In this document: one piece after another, positions 3,736 to 49,703 of the stretch
Position numbering within the stretch: position 1 is the first letter of the stretch
How the letters are laid out: each line of letters opens with the position of its first letter
Assembly (NCBI GenBank): GCA_017546705.1
Contig: JAFYSB010000008.1
Coordinates: 4,741 to 68,740 of the forward strand
Origin: Paludibacteraceae bacterium
GTDB taxonomy: Bacteria; Bacteroidota; Bacteroidia; Bacteroidales; Paludibacteraceae
Direction of reading: 5' to 3'
Length of the DNA stretch: 64,000 bases
Translations under genes and position numbers: made by a program
The notes under the pieces: model-generated
The model's input: only the letters and a program-made list of their open reading frames with translations
Databases searched by the model: none
Told to the model about the DNA's origin: nothing

Positions 3736-5460
3736 GATGCGCATTTCGCAGTTTTTACAGTCGAACTCGAGGGACAGGCGTGTGCCGTTTTGCAAACGGA
3801 GATAGCGAGGTTCGTTTGCCATAGGGTTGATCTTGCGGCAATGACCTAACTCATGGAGTATGCAGTATTTGCAGGTCATGAGGGCAGTTGGCAGTTGGCA
3901 GTTGACAGTTGACAGTTGACAGTTGGCAGTTCTTATCTCGCATATGCTCGAACGATCACTCGCAGAGCTCGTGTACGATAGTTGAGCGTTGACAGTTGAT
4001 GGTTTGTTAATGACCTCTCTGCGCCATTGGTTGAGTTGGCTGGTTGGAATGAAATATGGGAAAGTGTCGGAGCATGGCTGTTCGTTAGCAAAGACTTGGA
4101 CGTCTTTGGCTACGAAATCCGTATCTCCGAGTTTACTAAGTTGCTGAACGATAGTTTGTAATGCGCGCTGTGGGTTGGTGGCTGGTTGATGCTCAGCCAC
4201 GAAAGTAGCGCTGTAATCTCCTATTGTCAAACGATAACCATCTGCTATAGCCTCAAAGCGAATTGCTGTAGGTATTTTGCGTTCAGCACGAAGCGAACGC
4301 AGAAATTCGTTGTCGAGATTGCGGTATAAGTTAGTGCCGACTTTGGGAAGCGATCCTCCTGACCTCCCTTCAAGGGAGGATGGTTGAAGGTTGGGATAAA
4401 TCCAGTCGCCTTCTATGCGGTTGATAGCGAAACCTTTGTCACCATAGCAAATGCCGTCACCATTGTGGAGGGTAATGCCATGCGCAAGTTCTACGCAGAT
4501 GGCGTTGTGTCGGGTAGCAATGACCTTACCAATCTTCTCGCCAGTGGATTTAGGTGTTTGCCAATTGGCCATGTTGGGGGTGCGACCATGCAAGAAGTAG
4601 TCGGTTTGTCCGCGGTGGAAGGTTTTAGCAGGGTTTGGAGTAAAGTCGTAATGATAGACGGATGGAGTAGATGCCTGTGCCAATGCAGGGTTGCTATCTA
4701 TCAGTTGGTCAAGCAATTGGCGATAGTATGCAACGATGTTGGTGACATAATCGCGGTCTTTTAATCGACCTTCAATCTTGAAAGTGGTCACGCCTGCCTC
4801 TATCATCTGAGCCAGGTGCTGGCTGCGGTCCATATCTTGGAGCGAGAGTAGGTAACGTTGGTGGATAGGGGCGCCATGGATATCCAGAATCTCATTGCCA
4901 TTTTTGTCGAGCAGGTCGTATCGTTGTCGGCATAGTTGTGCGCAACATCCGCGGTTGGCACTACGATCCATGAGTGCCTCAGAGAGGTAACAACGGCCAC
5001 TATAGCTCACGCATAAGGCACCGTGGACAAAGGCCTCGAGTTCGATGGACCCCTCCAACTCCCCTTCAAGGGGAGAGTTTTGTATAGTGTAGTTGATTTC
5101 TCTGATTTGGTCAATGGATAGTTCGCGGGCGAGAACTACGCGGCGGAAGCCCAATTGCTGCAAATGAAGTACTTGCTCAGGGGTACGATTGTCGCATTGT
5201 GTAGAGGCATGCAGGCGAATGGGAGGAAGGTCGTAGTTGAGGAGGTTGAGGTCTTGGATGATGAGTGCATCCACTCCCACCTTATATAACTCGTGCGCGA
5301 GCGCACACGCGCGAGGATATTCGTCGTCGTGGAGTAGGGTGTTGAGCGTTACAAGTACCTGAGCACCAAAGCGATGGGCGTATAGGACCAATTCGGCGAT
5401 GTCTTCTAAGGAGTTGCCTGCTGCTTGGCGCGCACCGAACTCGGGCGCACCGATATACAC
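3724..5460 (-). CDS. U32-family peptidase (YegQ/RlhA-like), repeat-riddled and without a canonical start codon for its conserved N-terminus
   Basis: U32 signature EAFVHGALCVSYSGRCYLSE. The conserved N-terminus SILAPARDLEVGIAAIQAGADAV continues in frame upstream of the ATG at 5460 to ~5535, and there is no ATG/GTG/TTG before an in-frame TGA. At least three in-frame repeat insertions are present. Confidence 0.8.
   Translation of the reverse strand: MYIGAPEFGARQAAGNSLEDIAELVLYAHRFGAQVLVTLNTLLHDDEYPRACALAHELYKVGVDALIIQDLNLLNYDLPPIRLHASTQCDNRTPEQVLHLQQLGFRRVVLARELSIDQIREINYTIQNSPLEGELEGSIELEAFVHGALCVSYSGRCYLSEALMDRSANRGCCAQLCRQRYDLLDKNGNEILDIHGAPIHQRYLLSLQDMDRSQHLAQMIEAGVTTFKIEGRLKDRDYVTNIVAYYRQLLDQLIDSNPALAQASTPSVYHYDFTPNPAKTFHRGQTDYFLHGRTPNMANWQTPKSTGEKIGKVIATRHNAICVELAHGITLHNGDGICYGDKGFAINRIEGDWIYPNLQPSSLEGRSGGSLPKVGTNLYRNLDNEFLRSLRAERKIPTAIRFEAIADGYRLTIGDYSATFVAEHQPATNPQRALQTIVQQLSKLGDTDFVAKDVQVFANEQPCSDTFPYFIPTSQLNQWRREVINKPSTVNAQLSYTSSASDRSSICEIRTANCQLSTVNCQLPTALMTCKYCILHELGHCRKINPMANEPRYLRLQNGTRLSLEFDCKNCEMRISKH
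3885..4000. repeat. CAGTTGA/CAGTTGG heptamer arrays flanking a ~47-nt core, inside the U32 CDS
   Basis: Array 3885-3931 (about 7 units) and array 3979-4000. Translated on the minus strand as ..STVNAQL...ANCQLSTVNCQLPT. Confidence 0.85.
4354..4384. repeat. Small palindromic element (CCTCCCTTCAAGGGAGG core) inside the U32 CDS
   Basis: Divergent relative of the 30-nt element at 5048 and 49243. Encodes ..SSLEGRSGGS.. Confidence 0.6.
5048..5077. repeat. 30-nt palindromic element GACCCCTCCAACTCCCCTTCAAGGGGAGAG inside the U32 CDS
   Basis: 29/30 identical to 49243-49272 in the same plus-strand orientation. Read on the minus strand it gives NSPLEGELEGS, inserted just before the conserved EAFVHGALC motif. 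Confidence 0.85.
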
Positions 5461-25685: not shown

Positions 25686-26708
25686 ATGAAATTCTTATTG
25701 GCTCCCATAGCATGGATTTATGGTTTCGTCGTATGGCTTCGTAATTTGCTATACGACGACCATATCCTGCATTCTACTCAGGTTAGCATACCTACCATTT
25801 GTGTGGGCAATCTTGCTGTAGGCGGAACAGGCAAAACACCAATGGCAGAGTACTTGATTTCTTTGCTCTCATCTGATTATAAGGTAGCGCTTCTTTCGCG
25901 TGGCTATGGGAGAAAAACAAAAGGCTTTCGTATTGCTAATGAGCATGATACAGCACAAACTATTGGTGATGAACCAATGCAAATCCACACCCATTTCCCC
26001 GATATACCTGTGGCTGTATGCGCCGACCGTGTGAAGGGCGTGAAACGTTTACAACAGTTGTATCCTGATTTGCAATGTGTAATCCTCGATGATGCGTACC
26101 AGCACCGCAAGTTGCGTTGCGGATTCTATGTGCTACTTACGCCTTATGACTGCCTATATACCAATGATCATCTGTTGCCATGGGGTAGGTTGCGCGATTT
26201 GCCTAATCAGAGTCACCGAGCCAATGTGGTGGTAGTGACTAAATGTCCGTCTCAAATGCAACCGATTGACAGACGAATAGTGAGCAATGCGTTGCATTTG
26301 GCATCGTACCAGCATTTGGTTTATTCTTCAATCGGTTATGCACCAATAGCATTGAATGGAACACCATTGCTTGTTACGGGCATTGCTAATCCGTTGCCAT
26401 TATTAGAGCATTTGAAAGCACAATGTCCAGATACCGAGTTGCTTGCATTTCCAGATCACCATGTGTTTACGAAACATGATATCGCTCAGATCATGCACAA
26501 AGCAGAACAATATAGCTGTGTTGTAACCACAGAAAAAGATTATATGCGTTTATTACAGACTCCATTGGTTGAACAGTTGGGTAACAAATTGCAAGTATTA
26601 GCTATTCAAACGGATTTGGGTATTGACAAAGAAGCTTTTGATCGTCAAATCCTTCTCTACGTCAGTGAGAATAACCGCAAGCTGTCAACTATTAACTGTC
26701 AACTGTAA
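25686..26708 (+). CDS. lpxK: Tetraacyldisaccharide 4'-kinase with a repeat-encoded C-terminal tail
   Basis: 340 aa. P-loop VGNLAVGGTGKTP. The last residues ..KLSTINCQL come from the heptamer array. Confidence 0.85.
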   Translation: MKFLLAPIAWIYGFVVWLRNLLYDDHILHSTQVSIPTICVGNLAVGGTGKTPMAEYLISLLSSDYKVALLSRGYGRKTKGFRIANEHDTAQTIGDEPMQIHTHFPDIPVAVCADRVKGVKRLQQLYPDLQCVILDDAYQHRKLRCGFYVLLTPYDCLYTNDHLLPWGRLRDLPNQSHRANVVVVTKCPSQMQPIDRRIVSNALHLASYQHLVYSSIGYAPIALNGTPLLVTGIANPLPLLEHLKAQCPDTELLAFPDHHVFTKHDIAQIMHKAEQYSCVVTTEKDYMRLLQTPLVEQLGNKLQVLAIQTDLGIDKEAFDRQILLYVSENNRKLSTINCQL

Positions 26709-26722
26709 ATTGTCAACTGTCC
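26682..26722. repeat. TCAACTG heptamer array (reverse orientation of the CAGTTGA family)
   Basis: Sequence ctgtcaactattaactgtcaactgtaaattgtcaactgtcc. It spans the lpxK stop and ends 3 nt before the next ATG (26726). Confidence 0.8.
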
Positions 26723-33865: not shown

Positions 33866-33930
33866 GGTGAAAGGGGAAAACTGGAAGGTTAAAAGTGAAA
33901 GGTTAAAGGTTAAAGGTTAGAGGTGAAAGG
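33866..33930. repeat. AGGTTAA heptamer array (~9 units)
   Basis: Units aggtgaa aggggaa aactgga aggttaa aagtgaa aggttaa aggttaa aggttag aggtgaa. It contains the stop (33917-33919) of the minus-strand gene. Confidence 0.85.
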
Positions 33931-34333
33931 CGTGGATTTTTGTACGAAGTATGAGGTAAACGATGCCTAATGCAATGATTATCCAAAGTACAATGGTGCA
34001 GCGTTTGTAGAATGGTGGTATATAGCGCTCAGGGGGGTGTTCTACTACGCGGTCACGATACTCCACGACGTGGATCGTGTCCGCTATAGTTGACAGTTGA
34101 CAGTTGAGAGTTGACAGTTGTTTGTCGCGATAAACTTCCTTCGTGATAAAGACTGTATCGTGGACTATGCGCTCGCGATAGACAATGCTGTCGTGGATAG
34201 TTGACAGTTGAGAGTTGACAGTTGACAGTTGGGAAACGCTGTTGTGATGTACACTGTCAATAGTACACTGTACACTGTCAAGGCTTTTGCATGAAGCAAG
34301 GAATACAAGGAAAAGGAGACAAAGATAACGCAT
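33917..34333 (-). CDS. Small lipoprotein with a C-terminal TM anchor (unimolecular-spanin-like topology), carrying two heptamer-array insertions
   Basis: Start at MRYLCLLFLVFLASC (lipobox). C-terminal TM CTIVLWIIIALGIVYLIL. Internal QLSTVNSQLST and QLSTLNCQLST are encoded by arrays at 34198-34232 and 34087-34120. Confidence 0.55.
   Translation of the reverse strand: MRYLCLLFLVFLASCKSLDSVQCTIDSVHHNSVSQLSTVNSQLSTIHDSIVYRERIVHDTVFITKEVYRDKQLSTLNCQLSTIADTIHVVEYRDRVVEHPPERYIPPFYKRCTIVLWIIIALGIVYLILRTKIHAFHL
34087..34232. repeat. Two CAGTTGA heptamer arrays (34087-34120 and 34198-34232) inside a CDS
   Basis: Sequences tagttgacagttgacagttgagagttgacagttg and tagttgacagttgagagttgacagttgacagttgg. Confidence 0.85.
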
Positions 34334-35144: not shown

Positions 35145-35155
35145 ACTCTTTTGGT

Positions 35156-35199
35156 GTTTAGTGAACGCGCCTTAGGCGCTACTGTTTAGTGTTTAGAGG
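35156..35199. repeat. GTTTAGT-hairpin-GTTTAGT composite repeat, copy D
   Basis: Sequence gtttagtgaacGCGCCttaGGCGCtactgtttagtgtttagagg. Confidence 0.8.
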
Positions 35200-35328
35200 T
35201 CAGGAGGGGGATTTGTAGCGGTATTTATAGTCAATGCCTCGTCGTAGTACGCCATTTGCATTGACTGACGCTTTGCGTCATTGGGCAAAGGCGACTCCTC
35301 CTCTTAAAGTCGAAAACAAGTTTCGCCT

Positions 35329-36240: not shown

Positions 36241-36293
36241 TGTTTTTTACTCGGTGCTCGGAATCCTCCATGCCGTCGGAGGGGGGGGGGAGT

Positions 36294-36406
36294 GTTTAGT
36301 GTTTAGTGAACGCGGCGTTGCCGCTACTGTTTAGTGTTTAGGGGTTAGTGTTTAGTGAACGCTCGCGGGGCGAGCTACTGTTTAGTGTTTAGTGTTTAGG
36401 GTTAGG
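36294..36406. repeat. GTTTAGT-hairpin composite repeat, copy E (two tandem units)
   Basis: Hairpins GCGGCgttGCCGC and GCTCGCgggGCGAGC, each flanked by gtttagtgtttagtgaac / tactgtttagtgtttag. It contains the stop at 36402. Confidence 0.85.
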
Positions 36407-39122: not shown

Positions 39123-40604
39123 TTAAAATGTCCAACCTACACCTACTTCAAATTCTAAGTAATGGAAATTAATAGTATTGACGCCCGCAGACAGAGTGAA
39201 TCCTCCCATACTTGCAATTAATCCTGCATCGACACTAACACCTGTGATTGATCCTGGAGCGCACATGATCCACTCTGATGTGCCCTCTAACTGCCAATAG
39301 AGACGCGAATGACCATATCCTAAACCAACGTACATGCCAAACATGTTATTCTCATTTCGCCACTTGACATTTCTCAAGAAGTCCATTGCAAATCCCACAT
39401 TTGCAACACATTCAGAGTTTGCAGTTTGATCTGTATAAAAAGGTATCACATACTCGTCTCCATTCCTAATCACTCCTTGTTGATTACAAGTTATTCCTTC
39501 TATCGCTTCAGGAAATATGAAGTTGCTTCTTCCTTTGACATACCAACCGAATCCGTTATACAATTGTCCGAAAGTTAATCCGATACCCCAACGTAAATTC
39601 ATTGACATTCCAGCATATCCCATCAGATAGGTGTTGATTAATACTTTGTTAGATTTAGATTTTCGAAGTGGATTTAATCTAATTTGCTGATTATTTGTAG
39701 CATATACAGTCTTTGTCTCAAACCCTTTATAACTAATCTCAATCATCGCCCCTTCTTTAGTCGCAAACATAAATTTTCCATTAGAATCTGTAATTGTTAC
39801 TTTTGATGTGCCTACCTCTGCAACAGAAGCTCCATTCAAAGGTTCTCCTGTAGTAGCATTTAATACAGTACCTTTGATGGTTTGGGTAGAGTTAGCATCC
39901 GATGTTTGAAGTGGATTTAATCTAATTTGCATATTGTTTGCAGCAGATACAATCTTTGTTTCGAAATCTTTGCAAGTCACTTCAAGCATCGTACCCTCAC
40001 TGGCCGCAAGCATAAATTTTCCATTAGAATCTGTAATTGTTACTTTTGATGTGCCTACCTCTACAATAGAAGCTCCATTCAAAGGTTCTCCTGTAGTAGC
40101 ATTTAATATAGTACCTTGGATGGTTTGAGCAGATTTTGTACTTGGCATCACGTGGTCTTCAACAGGATTGTAACATACAGCTCCATCATAAACCGCATCT
40201 GATTCTAAACGATTTAGTGAAAGTATTTGTTGTTTCTGACATCCCTCACCACAAGTAAGAACAACAGTTCCCGCTGATGATGGCACCAAAAATATCAACT
40301 CATTTTCCACTTCATCTATCTTAGATTCTGGTTGATAATGTTGCCCTAAATATAAACTTAGTTTTTCTTTGGCTGCTAGCACTTGAGTTTCATTCCCCTC
40401 TAATTTTATGCGAATCACAGCATATGCAAATTTATCATCTACATTTGGATTTTCAAAATTTTGAAAGTATTTACTATACATTGCCAATACAGATGCATAT
40501 TGCAACTTCTCAAATGGCTTTATCACTTCTAATGATTGTCCTACACACGCTATAGGAGTAAAAAGTAATACAAAGACGAATAGATATGAGTAAAAATGTT
40601 TCAT
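39123..40604 (-). CDS. Outer-membrane protein: two tandem CarboxypepD_reg-like domains plus a C-terminal beta-barrel-like region
   Basis: 493 aa. Signal peptide. There are two ~81-aa repeats (TIQGTILNATTGEPLNGASIVEVGTSKVTITDSNGKF...). The C-terminus has alternating aromatic/Gly beta-strand patterns and ends ..GVGWTF. Confidence 0.6.
   Translation of the reverse strand: MKHFYSYLFVFVLLFTPIACVGQSLEVIKPFEKLQYASVLAMYSKYFQNFENPNVDDKFAYAVIRIKLEGNETQVLAAKEKLSLYLGQHYQPESKIDEVENELIFLVPSSAGTVVLTCGEGCQKQQILSLNRLESDAVYDGAVCYNPVEDHVMPSTKSAQTIQGTILNATTGEPLNGASIVEVGTSKVTITDSNGKFMLAASEGTMLEVTCKDFETKIVSAANNMQIRLNPLQTSDANSTQTIKGTVLNATTGEPLNGASVAEVGTSKVTITDSNGKFMFATKEGAMIEISYKGFETKTVYATNNQQIRLNPLRKSKSNKVLINTYLMGYAGMSMNLRWGIGLTFGQLYNGFGWYVKGRSNFIFPEAIEGITCNQQGVIRNGDEYVIPFYTDQTANSECVANVGFAMDFLRNVKWRNENNMFGMYVGLGYGHSRLYWQLEGTSEWIMCAPGSITGVSVDAGLIASMGGFTLSAGVNTINFHYLEFEVGVGWTF
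39660..40140. repeat. 243-nt tandem duplication inside the CDS
   Basis: The strings gaagtggatttaatctaatttgc and ccattagaatctgtaattgttacttttgatgtgcctacctct recur with a 243-nt period. Confidence 0.85.
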
Positions 40605-46019: not shown

Positions 46020-46067
46020 TAGTTGACAATTGACAGTTAACAGTTGACAGTTAACGATTGACAATTG
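46020..46067. repeat. CAGTTGA-family heptamer array (~7 units)
   Basis: Sequence tagttgacaattgacagttaacagttgacagttaacgattgacaattg. It accounts for the spurious ORF 45900..46082. Confidence 0.85.
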
Positions 46068-46393: not shown

Positions 46394-46420
46394 GAAAATG
46401 GCGAAAAAATCGCCATTTTC
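46394..46420. terminator. Hairpin terminator downstream of the RAYT-like gene and its REP array
   Basis: GAAAATGGCGA-aaaaa-TCGCCATTTTC. Confidence 0.6.
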
Positions 46421-46421
46421 A

Positions 46422-46465
46422 GTTTAGAGGATGCGCCAGAGGCGCTATAGTTTAGAGGTTAGAGG
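46422..46465. repeat. GTTTAG-hairpin-GTTTAG composite repeat, copy F
   Basis: Sequence gtttagaggatGCGCCagaGGCGCtatagtttagaggttagagg. Confidence 0.8.
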
Positions 46466-46648
46466 CGGAGAATACTCGACTAAAGTCGAGATAATAGAAG
46501 AATATTTAGCAGAGATGTACCCGACTAGAAGTCGGGATAATGGAAGAATCTTTGGCGAGGATATTCCCAACTAGAAGTTGGGGCAATAGAAGAATATTGA
46601 ACGGAGTACCCGACTAGAAGTCGGGACAATGGAAGAATATTGACGAAT
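46466..46648. repeat. REP-like array: four ~45-bp tandem units, each with a hairpin
   Basis: Hairpins CTCGACtaaaGTCGAG, CCCGACtagaaGTCGGG, CCCAACtagaaGTTGGG and CCCGACtagaaGTCGGG, each followed by (a/c)aat(a/g)gaagaat. Stem changes are compensatory. Confidence 0.9.
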
Positions 46649-46652
46649 GGAA

Positions 46653-47789
46653 TTAGGAATGAGAGATGGAGCAAATCTCTTCTGCCATACCATTGAGAGC
46701 AACGCAGTCTTCGCGAGAGATGTGGTGCTTATCTGGGTCATGTTCCCAAGGACTGAGAATCAAGACACGACCTTCGGCGACGGCATCAAATAGCGCATCG
46801 GTGGGTTTGTAATAATCACGGAAACCATTGTCAGAAAGCACAATAAAAGGATGCTTCTCGGCAAGCAAGACAGACATAACCTCTTTCTCTTTAGGCGAAA
46901 TGAAAGGAGAGACCATAACCGTACCTTGGCGAGCAGCAAGAATACAAGCATTCATATAGTCGCGAAGTGGCTGGGTGTCGCCGTGTTGTTCTGCATCTTT
47001 AACCCACATGCTGCGCACATGGACGGGAGCGAAACATTTATTATGTAACAAGCGGATATTACCTACACCACTATATGAGCGCCCTGCAATCTCAATGCCC
47101 TCTTGCACACGGAAGAAACCTGGCATAATGCGCTTAGTAGCAAGGCGTTGGGGATTATTGATAATATACTGAATAGTGGCAGGTAATTGTCTGCGTTGTC
47201 CCATAGGACGGATATGCGGCATCTCTGTAAAAATAGGAAATAAAGCCCTATATTTTTCTTGACCAATGCGAGATGAAAGCGTGTCTGTGGTGGCTTGCAA
47301 AAGGGACAAAAGTTCGTGGTAGTTTTCCCGACTACAAGTCGTCAAACACCCCACCAATCCACGAGATTGGTCGGGGACCCCGCGGGCAATAGAAGAATTA
47401 TCAATGGGCGAATGAGATATAAGGAAGGAATAGGCACGTCCTATTTTCTTAACACCTTGCCAAAAGCCCTGCACTACACTTTTAATGCCGCGAGGCATCT
47501 TCTCACGCACATACCAGACGGCATGGATATGATCGGGCATTAAACAATAATGCAATACTTGTATTTCAGGGATTCGATTGGGGATATCCCATAACGCATT
47601 TACCAACATTCGACCTAAGGCAGTATATTCTACAGTAGCTTCTTTGGGATCATTGCCTGGGATAAGAAGCGTGCCTAAGAGCGGTTCGCGAGAGGGAATG
47701 GTGAGGGTAATATGATACAAGCCGACACCTTTCCATGTTGTGCCAGGCTCTTGCCATTGCCAGTTGTTATCGGAGTGGGAGGGCGTCAT
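46653..47789 (-). CDS. HUH/Y1 transposase-family protein (IS200/RAYT-like) with a C-terminal extension
   Basis: Start moved to MTPSHSDNNW (the -7 box at 47816-47823 lies inside the longer ORF). HUH motif LMPDHIHAVWYV. Downstream TIQYIINNPQRLATKRI matches the RAYT/COG1943 Y-x-x-x-N-P motif. About 140 extra C-terminal residues are of unknown fold. Confidence 0.65.
   Translation of the reverse strand: MTPSHSDNNWQWQEPGTTWKGVGLYHITLTIPSREPLLGTLLIPGNDPKEATVEYTALGRMLVNALWDIPNRIPEIQVLHYCLMPDHIHAVWYVREKMPRGIKSVVQGFWQGVKKIGRAYSFLISHSPIDNSSIARGVPDQSRGLVGCLTTCSRENYHELLSLLQATTDTLSSRIGQEKYRALFPIFTEMPHIRPMGQRRQLPATIQYIINNPQRLATKRIMPGFFRVQEGIEIAGRSYSGVGNIRLLHNKCFAPVHVRSMWVKDAEQHGDTQPLRDYMNACILAARQGTVMVSPFISPKEKEVMSVLLAEKHPFIVLSDNGFRDYYKPTDALFDAVAEGRVLILSPWEHDPDKHHISREDCVALNGMAEEICSISHS
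47322..47407. repeat. Interrupted REP unit inside the RAYT-like CDS
   Basis: cccgactacaagtcg + 43-nt insert + ggcaatagaagaattatcaatgg, translated in frame as ..DNSSIARGVPDQSRGLVGCLTTCSRENY.. Confidence 0.65.
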
Positions 47790-47815
47790 AAAGGGGGAAT
47801 ATTGAAATAATGGTG

Positions 47816-47823
47816 CAAAGGTA
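47816..47823 (-). promoter_or_regulatory. -7 promoter box TACCTTTG for the RAYT-like gene
   Basis: The plus strand reads CAAAGGTA, 27 nt upstream of the ATG at 47789. Confidence 0.55.
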
Positions 47824-47885
47824 GTGAAAATTTGGCAGATGAGCAAATTTTGGATAGGAAAAGTAGATGATTATAAGGGTAATGG

Positions 47886-47937
47886 ATGAGGAATACCCGA
47901 CCAGAAGTCGGGGGCATGGAAGAATGTTCAGCGAGGG
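47886..47937. repeat. REP unit upstream of the RAYT-like gene
   Basis: tacCCGACcagaaGTCGGGggcatggaagaatgttcagcgagg, in the same orientation as the 46466-46648 array. Confidence 0.8.
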
Positions 47938-48036
47938 GAAGAGCAGGGGCTTAAGAGGATTGCGGGATTTTGCCTGATAGGCTGGGGGGAGGGGATAACG
48001 TGCCAATGGGGCAAGAGGCATGTGAAAAGAAAAGCG

Positions 48037-48044
48037 TACTTTTG
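48037..48044 (+). promoter_or_regulatory. -7 promoter box TACTTTTG
   Basis: Matches TAnnTTTG, ~110 nt upstream of the ATG at 48153. Confidence 0.4.
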
Positions 48045-48152
48045 CAGCGCATTCGCAGAGCGAGTTTGAAAGGGTTAAACTGCTGGTGCGAAGCTAATAA
48101 AAAACTTAACCCAAATCGGTTATTGGATTTGGGTTTTAACAACAAACGCTTT

Positions 48153-48473
48153 ATGACAAAAAACTTGGAAAATGTGGTACGCAAGAATGTGCTGCAATTG
48201 ATTAACAAACATGACATCAACAAACAACAAATGGCATTGGAACTGGGAATGGATCCAGGACATCTGAGTCGCGTGATTAGCGGGAAAAGAAGTGTCACGA
48301 TGGAACATGTGGAGAAGTGGGCAGCGTACTTTGAGATTTCAGCCGCAGAACTGATGAGTGAACCGCATGTGAACGTGAAGTGTGGCGATGATCAGGTGAT
48401 ACGTATCGACCTGCATGTGCCGCATTACGATGCGTATATACGGCTGAAAAGAATGATACAAGAGTTGTACTAA
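48153..48473 (+). CDS. XRE-family helix-turn-helix protein
   Basis: Start chosen at MTKNLENV. NKQQMALELGMDPGHLSRVISGKRSVTMEHVEKWAAYFEISAAELM is a classic HTH_3 pattern. Confidence 0.65.
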   Translation: MTKNLENVVRKNVLQLINKHDINKQQMALELGMDPGHLSRVISGKRSVTMEHVEKWAAYFEISAAELMSEPHVNVKCGDDQVIRIDLHVPHYDAYIRLKRMIQELY

Positions 48474-48515
48474 TTATGAATTAAGAATTTTGAATTATGA
48501 AGTCTGAATATGAAG
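48471..48515. repeat. GAATTAT heptamer array spanning a start codon
   Basis: Sequence taattatgaattaagaattttgaattATGaagtctgaatatgaag. The ATG at 48497 is inside a repeat unit. Confidence 0.8.
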
Positions 48516-49549
48516 AGATCTTAGCCCGTAGGATTACTCCCGATACGACGGTGCCCCAACACGATTTTCTTTTCCGTTGGGGCGACCGCCCCTGCTTTGC
48601 TCGTGGGGAACTTGTAGCCCTCACGGGTAAAGCCAAGTCGGGCAAGACATTCGTCTGCTCAATACTGATGGCTCTGGGTGTGCGGAAGCAGATCATGGGG
48701 CTCTCACGTCTGCACGATGAGATGCTGCGCGTGGTGTGGATCGATACCGAGCAGAGCGAAGACTCGACGCACGAGATCCTGTGTCATCGTATCGGTTCGC
48801 TGATTGGGCAGGCGATACCCGATGAGCAATACTATGTGTATAACCTGCGTCGGGACAACTGGCAAGACCGCTTGCATTGGGCGGAGATGTGCATTGTGCA
48901 ACATAAGCCCGACCTGGTGATCTTTGATGGTATTCGCGATGTGGTAGGTGATATCAATAACTACTCCGAAGCACAGACGGTGCTGGATAAGTTGCTATCG
49001 CTTGCTTCATGGTCAGGAGCGTGTATTGTATGCGTGCTGCACCAGAACAAAGCGCTGGAAGACAAGACGTTGCGCGGCGCATTGGGTACGGAGTTGCAGA
49101 ACAAGAGCTACGAGACGTATGAGTGTCAGAAAGACCTGGACACGCGGTTGTTTACGTTGAAGCAGACCGCTACGCGGAAGTATGATATTGGTGCGAAGTT
49201 GGAGTTTACGGTGAGTCATGAGGGATTGCCCATATTGGAGAAGACCCCTCCAGCTCCCCTTCAAGGGGAGAGAACTGTGGGGAATGAGTATGCGCGACAA
49301 ATAAATGCTGCCACTATTGTACCGAAGGTATTTGGTAGTTTGACCAGCATGCGAGCATACGATTTTAAGCAAAAAGCGATGCGTTGTTTTCCAGAAGTGA
49401 ATTGCGAAACCGCCTACAGGGAGTTGCTGCGGCAGGCTTATCAGATGGAGCTGATTGACAAACGCAAGATCAACGACAATGAAACATATTATGACCTGCG
49501 TAGCACAAGCCAGAAGGGGCAAGTAGAGGAGATACCAAGCCTGTTTTGA
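48497..49549 (+). CDS. RecA-fold P-loop ATPase (AAA_25 / RepA-like, mobile-element-type)
   Basis: 350 aa. Walker A LTGKAKSGKTF. Walker B-like LVIFDGIRDV...CIVCVLHQNK. Carries the 30-nt palindromic element in frame (TPPAPLQGER). Confidence 0.6.
   Translation: MKSEYEEILARRITPDTTVPQHDFLFRWGDRPCFARGELVALTGKAKSGKTFVCSILMALGVRKQIMGLSRLHDEMLRVVWIDTEQSEDSTHEILCHRIGSLIGQAIPDEQYYVYNLRRDNWQDRLHWAEMCIVQHKPDLVIFDGIRDVVGDINNYSEAQTVLDKLLSLASWSGACIVCVLHQNKALEDKTLRGALGTELQNKSYETYECQKDLDTRLFTLKQTATRKYDIGAKLEFTVSHEGLPILEKTPPAPLQGERTVGNEYARQINAATIVPKVFGSLTSMRAYDFKQKAMRCFPEVNCETAYRELLRQAYQMELIDKRKINDNETYYDLRSTSQKGQVEEIPSLF
49243..49272. repeat. 30-nt palindromic element GACCCCTCCAGCTCCCCTTCAAGGGGAGAG inside the ATPase CDS
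   Basis: 29/30 identical to 5048-5077. Stem CTCCCCTT/AAGGGGAG. Confidence 0.85.
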
Positions 49550-49645: not shown

Positions 49646-49703
49646 GAATTATGAATTAAAAATTATGAATTATGAATTAAGAATTAAGAATTTTGAATTA
49701 TGA
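49646..49703. repeat. GAATTAT heptamer array (~8 units) spanning a start codon
   Basis: Units gaattat gaattaa aaattat gaattat gaattaa gaattaa gaatttt gaattATGag. It shares the 23-mer gaattaagaattttgaattatga with 48477-48499. Confidence 0.85.

Follow-up and report, generated by a model that had tools for sequence, protein, structure and literature searches.

Is a nuclease gene that has the same short hairpin behind it, in front of it and inside its own reading frame the partner of that hairpin, or merely its neighbour? The question is raised by a locus in a 64,000-nucleotide stretch of a Paludibacteraceae genome (assembly GCA_017546705.1, contig JAFYSB010000008.1, forward-strand positions 4,741 to 68,740)—here called the window, and numbered from its first letter. 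The gene encodes a protein that joins a Y1-type HUH (histidine–hydrophobic–histidine) nuclease domain to a DprA-like domain, and the hairpins sit in repeat units of about 46 bp. Such an arrangement recalls the REP-associated tyrosine transposases (RAYTs) and their repetitive extragenic palindromic (REP) sequences, best known from Proteobacteria, and we hold a REP/RAYT-like partnership to be reasonably probable: the protein would be a nuclease-ligase of single-stranded DNA (ssDNA), with the hairpin units as its likely substrates. The comparisons below draw on 80 loci gathered from metagenomes by protein similarity alone, together with loci from metagenome-assembled genomes (MAGs); L-numbers denote these homologous loci or stretches and P-numbers denote proteins.

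Read in gene sense, the unit is AATATTCTTCCATTGT-CCCGACT-TCT-AGTCGGG-TAC, a leader (TTCTTCnATTG) followed by a hairpin. A covariance model (R1), trained on units from other genomes and run with filters off over all 64 kb, detected exactly six units, with no other match at E<0.1 on the strand of the gene (Table 1). The initial annotation of this DNA had described four tandem units of about 45 bp behind the gene, one unit upstream and one interrupted unit read in frame within the coding sequence (CDS), all in the same orientation, and each of these points is borne out: the six R1 matches all lie in gene sense, and Tandem Repeats Finder independently reports the downstream array at 46473-46641, with a period of 46 and 3.8 copies. 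The hairpin dimensions first given, a 6-bp stem with a 4-5-nt loop, hold for the fourth downstream unit (6 bp, 4 nt); the other three have 7-bp stems and 3-nt loops (CCCGACT-AGA-AGTCGGG, CCCAACT-AGA-AGTTGGG). Each stem in the array is paired with its own complement, and the folding z-score of the array is -6.3 as DNA and -5.8 as RNA. Neither the unit pattern nor its AATRGAAGAAT tail occurred in 100 shuffles of the window, and no Rfam family matches the units or the region. A CRISPR-like array was considered and rejected, as the units directly adjoin one another, with no unique sequence between them, and no cas gene was noticed in the neighbourhood. We likewise set aside the idea that the unit is one of the many repeats of the window, R1 having found nothing outside 46468-47930; the earlier suggestion that the enzyme mobilizes some of those repeats gains no support.

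The unit inside the CDS is itself interrupted, parted into 47327-47341 and 47384-47398 by a 42-nt insert in its 5' stem arm. This insert is a hairpin module of a second type, reading GCGGGGTCCCCGA-CCAATC-TCGTG-GATTGG-TGGGGTGTTTGA on the sense strand and forming the hairpin ACCAATC-CACGA-GATTGGT at 47353-47371. The type-2 module is present in the window, L036 and L134 and missing from L132, a close relative (95% identical) with an uninterrupted unit; its leader recurs with other stems in L036, L011 and L023.

Far from being an accident of one genome, a unit read in frame within the gene proved to be the norm of the family. A perfect leader-plus-hairpin unit is found inside the CDS, at codon ~115-135, in 83 of 98 complete genes—one unit in 77 genes, two in 4, three in 1 and four in 1. 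The family consensus, nnCTTCTTCnATTGCC-CCGAAT-nnn-ATTCGG-G, is devoid of GTAG or CGTC and is translated as A-S-S-I-A-P-N-x-I-R-E-N, within a linker that is hypervariable in the alignment. The stems of these coding units vary by paired changes (CCGAAT/ATTCGG, CCGACT/AGTCGG, CCGGAT/ATCCGG, CCGGCT/AGCCGG, CCGCCT/AGGCGG, CCGAGT/ACTCGG), so that the amino acids shift in pairs and base pairing is kept. Compensatory stem changes, which the initial annotation had noticed among the few units of the window, extend to the 130 distinct units aligned by R1: 92.7% of cells pair, double-sided changes occur at 6 of the 8 pairs (107 cells), and none of 500 shuffles reached this level of pairing, with 46-56% pairing in a control in which the partner was slid by one column. 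Moreover, pair 19-35 of the seed alignment, just outside the selected stem, covaries though it was not imposed by the seed selection (CG 38, UA 9, UG 8, GC 7).

Conservation of the protein motif SSIAPNxIREN was tried as the cause of this pattern and rejected, given that the codons are fixed for pairing (CCG...CGG, AAT/ATT vs ACT/AGT), that the outer pair covaries and that the unit is also found in non-coding DNA, in either orientation. Across 91 genes the downstream units are sense in 43 cases, double-footed (with a leader on both sides) in 9 and antisense in none; inverted flanking units were noted in L061, and some lineages carry inverted or double-foot units in the CDS and in the flanks. 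The existence of both orientations and of double-foot forms argues for a DNA element over a protein or mRNA signal. In two Prevotella loci and one further locus, all ~30% identical, the linker likewise holds a hairpin that covaries (TCTGAGGC-AAT-GCCTCAGA versus TCAGAGGC-GGT-GCCTCTGA). At the Prevotella loci L136 and L143, those of two proteins, the homologous gene stands between a gene for an MlaE-like permease and a gene for an ABC ATPase, which suggests a stable, domesticated copy. In a distant member (L142, 3001-4293) the linker hairpin is followed, still within the linker, by eleven tandem copies of a 9-aa repeat (AVPMSTDKQ), and a similar 27-nt repeat sequence lies upstream of the gene.

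That the HUH domain reads the hairpins is best supported, if indirectly, by a natural exchange in which core and unit appear to have changed together. In P0014 and its relatives, both ends of the window protein are retained (86% identity over aa 1-51 and 94% over aa 212-378), and the HUH core between them (aa 52-211) is swapped for one that is only 46% and 40% identical. Two loci of this type, L149 and L150, represent the same chromosomal site as the window gene, and in both the unit within the CDS and all five downstream units are of another type, with the leader TTCTTTGTYCATTAG and the stem CCGCAT-CTC-ATGCGG. The impression that P0014-type proteins have no unit in the linker was wrong: they carry the other unit type, hidden by the protein alignment. 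Their lengths of 335, 349, 363 and 377 aa rise in steps of 14 aa, suggesting copy-number variation of a 42-nt in-frame unit.

Is the protein of a kind that could act on such hairpins? It belongs with the HUH/Y1 enzymes, nearer to RAYTs than to IS200. H87, H89, Y208, N212 and P213 are invariant in alignments of 18 and 36 sequences, down to 26% identity, the FWQG and YIINNP motifs are present, and the HUH motif has the form DH[IL]H. The only NCBIfam match of the window protein is REP_Tyr_transpos (NF047646), at 22.5 bits and hence under the 80-bit equivalog cutoff; this profile is also the best match for all ten distant relatives (about 28-44.5 bits), with IS200 far weaker. No Pfam family, PF01797 (Y1_Tnp) included, matches the window protein at E<=1, and Y1_Tnp is matched by 20 of 36 family members at E<=0.1 (best 6.6e-8); some distant database relatives carry a precomputed PF01797 annotation. 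The initial annotation's 379-aa RAYT-like protein thus stands as to its PDHIH and YIINNP motifs, closest profile and fold, and is corrected to 378 aa and a score well below the cutoff; of the two profile searches it had proposed, the RAYT one gave a match, and the PF01797 one gave matches to relatives and none to the window protein itself. A TTG start at 47846, upstream of the ATG at 47789, would extend the protein to 397 aa.

In the AlphaFold model (mean pLDDT, the per-residue confidence score, of 87), the protein has two domains and a disordered linker (aa 130-148); pLDDT falls below 50 over aa 128-153 in one model and over aa 130-148 in the other. With a Foldseek probability of 1.0, the N-terminal part matches ISDra2 TnpA, IS608 TnpA, a S. 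tokodaii transposase and the RAYT structure 4er8, at target-normalised TM-scores of 0.46-0.65. The C-terminal extension, said at first to be of unknown fold, is DprA-like: its 150 aa match, again with probability 1.0, ShosA (8zva, E 7e-5), H. pylori DprA (4ljk/5mll) and S. pneumoniae DprA (3uqz), the H. pylori chains aligning over ~165 columns at a root-mean-square deviation of ~5.8 Å. The domain may handle ssDNA or recruit RecA. Pfam DNA_processg_A (PF02481) does not match the window protein and reaches 18.6 bits in one distant member, below its cutoff of 29.6; PADLOC and Protein Data Bank (PDB) sequence searches gave no significant match, either for the window protein or for the region. The domain ranks among the best-conserved parts of the protein in our alignments. 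The ratio of nonsynonymous to synonymous substitution (dN/dS) against relatives is 0.07-0.17, at dS values of 0.08-0.73, which indicates that the gene is maintained by purifying selection. A word-indexed protein search returned 3083 homologues, all unnamed or 'hypothetical', and an exhaustive search gave 1613 clusters at 50% identity. Members are frequent in rumen and gut Paludibacteraceae, and Prevotella and Muribaculaceae proteins belong to the family too; proteins named 'transposase', from Prevotella jejuni and from a MAG of the Muribaculaceae, are among its distant full-length members (26-37% identity).

The number of units changes from strain to strain. Within the CDS there is one unit in L132, one interrupted unit in the window and L036, two in L134, L002 and L039, three in L048 and four in L130—always with a period of 48 nt in window-type alleles and of 42 nt in the second allele class, so that the frame is kept; the extragenic period is 43-46 nt. 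The upstream array, of one unit in the window, holds at least two in L036, about five in L134 and at least seven in L150, and varies in this way between strains that are 92-97% identical. Presence/absence polymorphism between sister strains, a comparison the initial annotation had proposed, was also found. The Paludibacteraceae MAG locus L007 matches both flanks of the window (94% and 89%) without the stretch 46507-47890, and has one hybrid unit in its place. In L016, from the species of the window (a MAG with a gene 97% identical), a single unit stands at the site that holds unit-gene-units in five L002-clade loci. The unit-bearing site occupied by the gene is not the same in the two clades. 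In the solo unit of L007 the crossover interval is the boundary of 5' stem and loop, and in that of L016 it is the leader; strand exchange at a fixed point in the loop is not borne out, and gene-sized deletions alone are no proof of site-specific chemistry. In L036 (between the equivalents of window 46441 and 46456) and downstream in L132, extra modules of at least ~145 nt are inserted between CCTCTAAAC-type heptamers beside the array; the extra modules of these sister strains include the type-2 hairpin GCGGGGTCACCGA-TAACGC-TCGTG-GCGTTA.

Units also occur away from the gene. One strict-pattern scan of a collection of species-representative genomes yielded 46 stretches, every one of them from a rumen or gut MAG of the Paludibacteraceae or Bacteroidales; 18 of them carry the gene, and the other 28 hold orphan units, located on different contigs of those MAGs. 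The orphans are embedded in mosaics with further hairpins (among them CTCGGCG-n7-CGCCGAG and a second unit whose stem is CCCGAAT), which are at times tandemly repeated with a period of ~130 nt. The initial annotation would have given up its reading for a unit confined to this one place in the genome and unconnected with homologous genes elsewhere; what we find is units linked to homologous genes at about 100 other loci, and further units elsewhere in related genomes.

Taken as a REP/RAYT-like partnership, these observations could be connected as follows. The HUH domain would bind the folded hairpin in single-stranded DNA, cut beside it and rejoin the ends; such cutting and joining of units, which we infer from the sequence comparisons, would duplicate them side by side and seed them at other sites, and sites that bear units could lose or gain a unit-gene-unit segment. 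The DprA-like domain might hold the single strand or bring RecA to it. Units would accumulate where the enzyme is made, and within the gene only those in-frame copies that fall in the disordered linker would survive. A bolder extension, to which we give a low probability, takes the hairpin in the CDS as an obligatory cis site—much as the replication origins of phiX174 and pT181 lie inside their rep genes—and couples the HUH nick to RecA loading by the DprA-like domain in an ssDNA cut-and-recombine machine of Bacteroidales that would move unit-bounded cassettes. Such a machine would exchange cassettes at structure-defined sites, its own catalytic-core swaps among them, and would be an HUH-driven functional analogue of integron attC recombination.

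Several observations weigh against the partnership or set it apart from RAYT/REP systems as described. The 22.5-bit score of the window protein stands against an 80-bit RAYT cutoff, and Pfam gives this protein no match. The units carry the TTCTTCnATTG leader instead of the GTAG/CGTC foot of RAYT/REP systems, have only a 7-bp stem, and are mostly direct tandem units rather than inverted REP pairs. Copy number is low (5-10 strict matches per MAG, and none outside the gene region in 64 kb), and three orphan-rich MAGs are without the gene within the 8-kb stretches fetched. Two Prevotella loci, in which the gene lies between the same neighbours, have no flanking units within 400 bp. As for the coupling of core and unit, the upstream array of L150 is still of the old type although the HUH core there is new, and stem sharing between CDS and flank, at 19/28, is weakly above the permutation mean of 14 (maximum 22). 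Finally, ordinary recombination between direct repeats would account for the gene-sized deletions.

There are three alternatives. In one, which we regard as improbable, unit-gene-unit is an autonomous insertion sequence (IS) of the IS200/IS605 type instead of a domesticated RAYT-like gene in single copy, and the orphan units are derivatives comparable to miniature inverted-repeat transposable elements (MITEs) or palindrome-associated transposable elements (PATEs). Its flanking units are direct, as IS200/IS605 ends are, the fold matches ISDra2 and IS608 TnpA, and the genes around family members vary from locus to locus; it would fit as well that the gene's chromosomal site differs between two clades and that the empty sites hold a solo unit. 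An autonomous insertion sequence, however, sits poorly with the count of complete genes, at most one per MAG among the fetched loci (MAG RUG13776 adds a partial copy at a contig end, L032), or with the graded divergence under purifying selection over the dS range given above, in place of near-identical copies. The same neighbours recur at the Prevotella loci of two proteins, the tyrosine motif is YIxNNP and not YxxxQ, no tnpB is found among the neighbour genes of the locus, and the profiles favour RAYTs.

Equally unlikely, in our estimate, is that the units spread and vary only by host processes—slippage, unequal crossing-over and recombination between direct repeats—with the enzyme engaged in other ssDNA work, mismatch correction in hairpins making the paired changes and the linker merely tolerating insertions. 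Array copy number does vary here as in microsatellites and minisatellites, and the crossover points of the two solo units differ; the linker is disordered, and tolerance of insertions was argued by Quentin et al. (PMC6006769) for RAYT subclass 2.4. Left unexplained by host processes are the unit's presence at one place in 83/98 genes spanning 55-100% identity, the change of unit type with the HUH core in an otherwise identical backbone, the units at unlinked loci, and the clean entry of a different 42-nt module into a stem arm.

Least probable, and in our view quite unlikely, are cis-regulatory RNA or DNA signals (stabilizers in the 3' untranslated region, terminators or an autoregulatory mRNA site) in place of mobile substrates: REPs in E. 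coli are known to stabilize mRNA, most units are sense, and the downstream array is probably transcribed and folds well as RNA, but this would explain neither the inverted or double-footed units in CDS and flanks of some lineages, nor the upstream unit outside the likely transcript, nor the orphan units in mosaics far from the gene, nor the presence and absence of the gene at unit sites, and Rfam holds no match.

The layout of the locus is given in Table 1. With the stop codon on one side of the downstream array and a terminator-like hairpin on the other, the array is probably transcribed, and its four units probably belong to the 3' untranslated region. The octamer TACCTTTG fits the Bacteroidetes -7 promoter consensus, TAnnTTTG, and is a putative promoter.

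Table 1. Features of the nuclease gene and its hairpin units (window coordinates).
Feature	Position	Strand	Basis or remark
CDS, HUH/Y1 nuclease + DprA-like domain	46653..47789 (stop 46653-46655 included)	minus	378 aa from ATG; open reading frame (ORF) listing
HUH/Y1 catalytic domain, aa 20-226	47112..47732	minus	Motif conservation, Foldseek, NCBIfam
HUH motif PDHIH	47523-47537	minus	Read from sequence
Catalytic Tyr208 of YIINNPQR	47166-47168	minus	Read from sequence
Disordered, length-variable linker, aa 128-153	47331..47408	minus	Between helix 101-125 and helix 154-175; houses the in-frame unit
C-terminal DprA/SLOG-like Rossmann domain, aa 229-378	46656..47105	minus	Foldseek
TACCTTTG, match to -7 promoter consensus	47816..47823	minus	27-34 nt before ATG; read from sequence
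Downstream array, four head-to-tail units directly after stop codon	46468..46643	minus	Tandem Repeats Finder, R1, folding
Downstream unit 1	46602-46643	minus	Stem CCCGAC; R1 45-47 bits
Downstream unit 2	46559-46600	minus	Stem CCCAAC; R1 45-47 bits
Downstream unit 3	46513-46554	minus	Stem CCCGAC; R1 45-47 bits
Downstream unit 4	46468-46508	minus	Stem CTCGAC; R1 33 bits
Upstream unit, beyond putative promoter	47889..47930	minus	100-141 nt before ATG; R1 23.3 bits
Unit within CDS, in frame (NSSIA...TTCSRENY)	47320..47403	minus	R1 match 47373-47403, 16 bits
42-nt type-2 hairpin module in 5' stem arm of unit within CDS	47342..47383	minus	
Terminator-like hairpin with T tract, beyond downstream array	46394..46420	minus	Consensus scan

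Genes for an HTH_3 regulator and an AAA_25 (RepA-like) ATPase adjoin the locus (window 47970-49549); they are not part of the unit-bounded segment, because they also stand beside the empty site of L007. A second class of repeats, at 35155-35200, 36288-36403 and 46420-46465, consists of a GC-rich hairpin between runs of the heptamer TGTTTAG(T/A), and its stems (GCGCC/GGCGC, GCGGC/GCCGC, GCTCGC/GCGAGC) again differ by paired changes; TGTTTAGWG occurs 12 times in the window versus 1.4 expected, and the hairpin/TGTTTAG module also follows orphan units in other MAGs. Tandem Repeats Finder additionally reports intergenic heptamer arrays at 3883-3931, 26682-26721, 33868-33930, 34088-34120, 34199-34231, 46021-46067, 48472-48514 and 49646-49703, with the heptamers GGCAGTT, CTGTCAA, AAGGTTA, AGTTGAC (twice), TTGACAA, AATTATG and GAATTAT. 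R1 does not match these arrays; the heptamer arrays and the heptamer-flanked hairpins are other sequences, and nothing ties them to the enzyme. A 243-bp tandem duplication (39658-40127; 1.9 copies, 86% identical) lies inside a 493-aa ORF.

A REP/RAYT-like partnership of this kind would matter for several reasons. The family is large and escapes Pfam, its members being labelled 'hypothetical' or generic 'transposase'. The fusion of an HUH nuclease with a DprA-like domain suggests a direct link of hairpin cutting to single-strand handling or RecA-mediated recombination, and the natural swap of core and unit type offers a ready-made specificity experiment. Short units defined by structure could account for part of the modular intergenic repeats of these genomes and, if the protein is indeed a sequence- and structure-specific ssDNA nuclease-ligase, the enzyme may have practical use.

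How, then, does the system compare with those already described? In the classification of Quentin et al. 2018 (PMC6006769), class 2 TnpA-Y1 (RAYT) proteins were recruited via PF01797. Their subclass 2.4 has WQ and YIxNNP motifs, in-frame REP insertions and an NH[IFV]H HuH motif; its proteins are about 194 aa long and lack a C-terminal domain. Subclass 2.6 is confined to Bacteroidetes and has 'atypical' structures. A DprA-like domain is not described there, and our literature text searches gave no paper on an HUH-DprA fusion.

The C-terminal 150 aa share their Rossmann-like fold with DprA/Smf and with ShosA of the Shosta defence system, but here the domain is fused to a nuclease; no SAM or winged-helix accessory domain was detected, and no sequence match to DprA or ShosA is significant. 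With bacterial interspersed mosaic elements (BIMEs), the orphan units have in common that they stand in mosaics of at least ~130 bp made of several hairpin motifs and short linkers; unlike BIMEs, the motifs have direct rather than alternating orientation and other sequences, and the host is a member of the Paludibacteraceae. Likeness to the IS200/IS605 TnpA proteins extends beyond the fold to sub-terminal hairpins that lie on a single strand and border the gene at either end, to small non-coding derivatives elsewhere in the genome in the manner of PATEs and MITEs, and to solo-unit sites consistent with excision or insertion of a gene-bearing segment. The differences are that no multi-copy, near-identical elements were seen among the fetched loci and no tnpB among the neighbours, that YIINNPQ is without the Q at +4 of the TnpA-IS200 motif YxxxQ, that the ends are tandem arrays of interchangeable units, that a unit lies inside the ORF, and that the protein has an extra domain.

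With RAYTs, such as that of E. coli (4ER8), the protein shares the HUH motif with a single Tyr and, as in subclass 2.4, the WQ and YIxNNP motifs and an in-frame unit; as far as the fetched loci go, no genome has more than one complete gene. Its cognate hairpins lie beside the gene and elsewhere, some lineages have 'double-foot' units, and both the host phylum, Bacteroidetes, and the 'atypical' structures agree with subclass 2.6. It departs from them in being twice as long, by way of its ~150-aa DprA-like domain, and from subclass 2.4 in particular in its 378 aa, in having DH[IL]H for NH[IFV]H, and in a unit insertion that apparently follows helix 101-125 in the model and not directly the HUH strand. 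Unit copy number appears to be tens at most, in contrast to the hundreds (typically >100) of REPtrons. Because the profile score, the GTAG foot and the inverted orientation that mark RAYTs and REPtrons were not found here, and unit copy number by the strict pattern was low, we do not count the system as a formal member—it looks like an undescribed variant that works in the manner of RAYT and REP.

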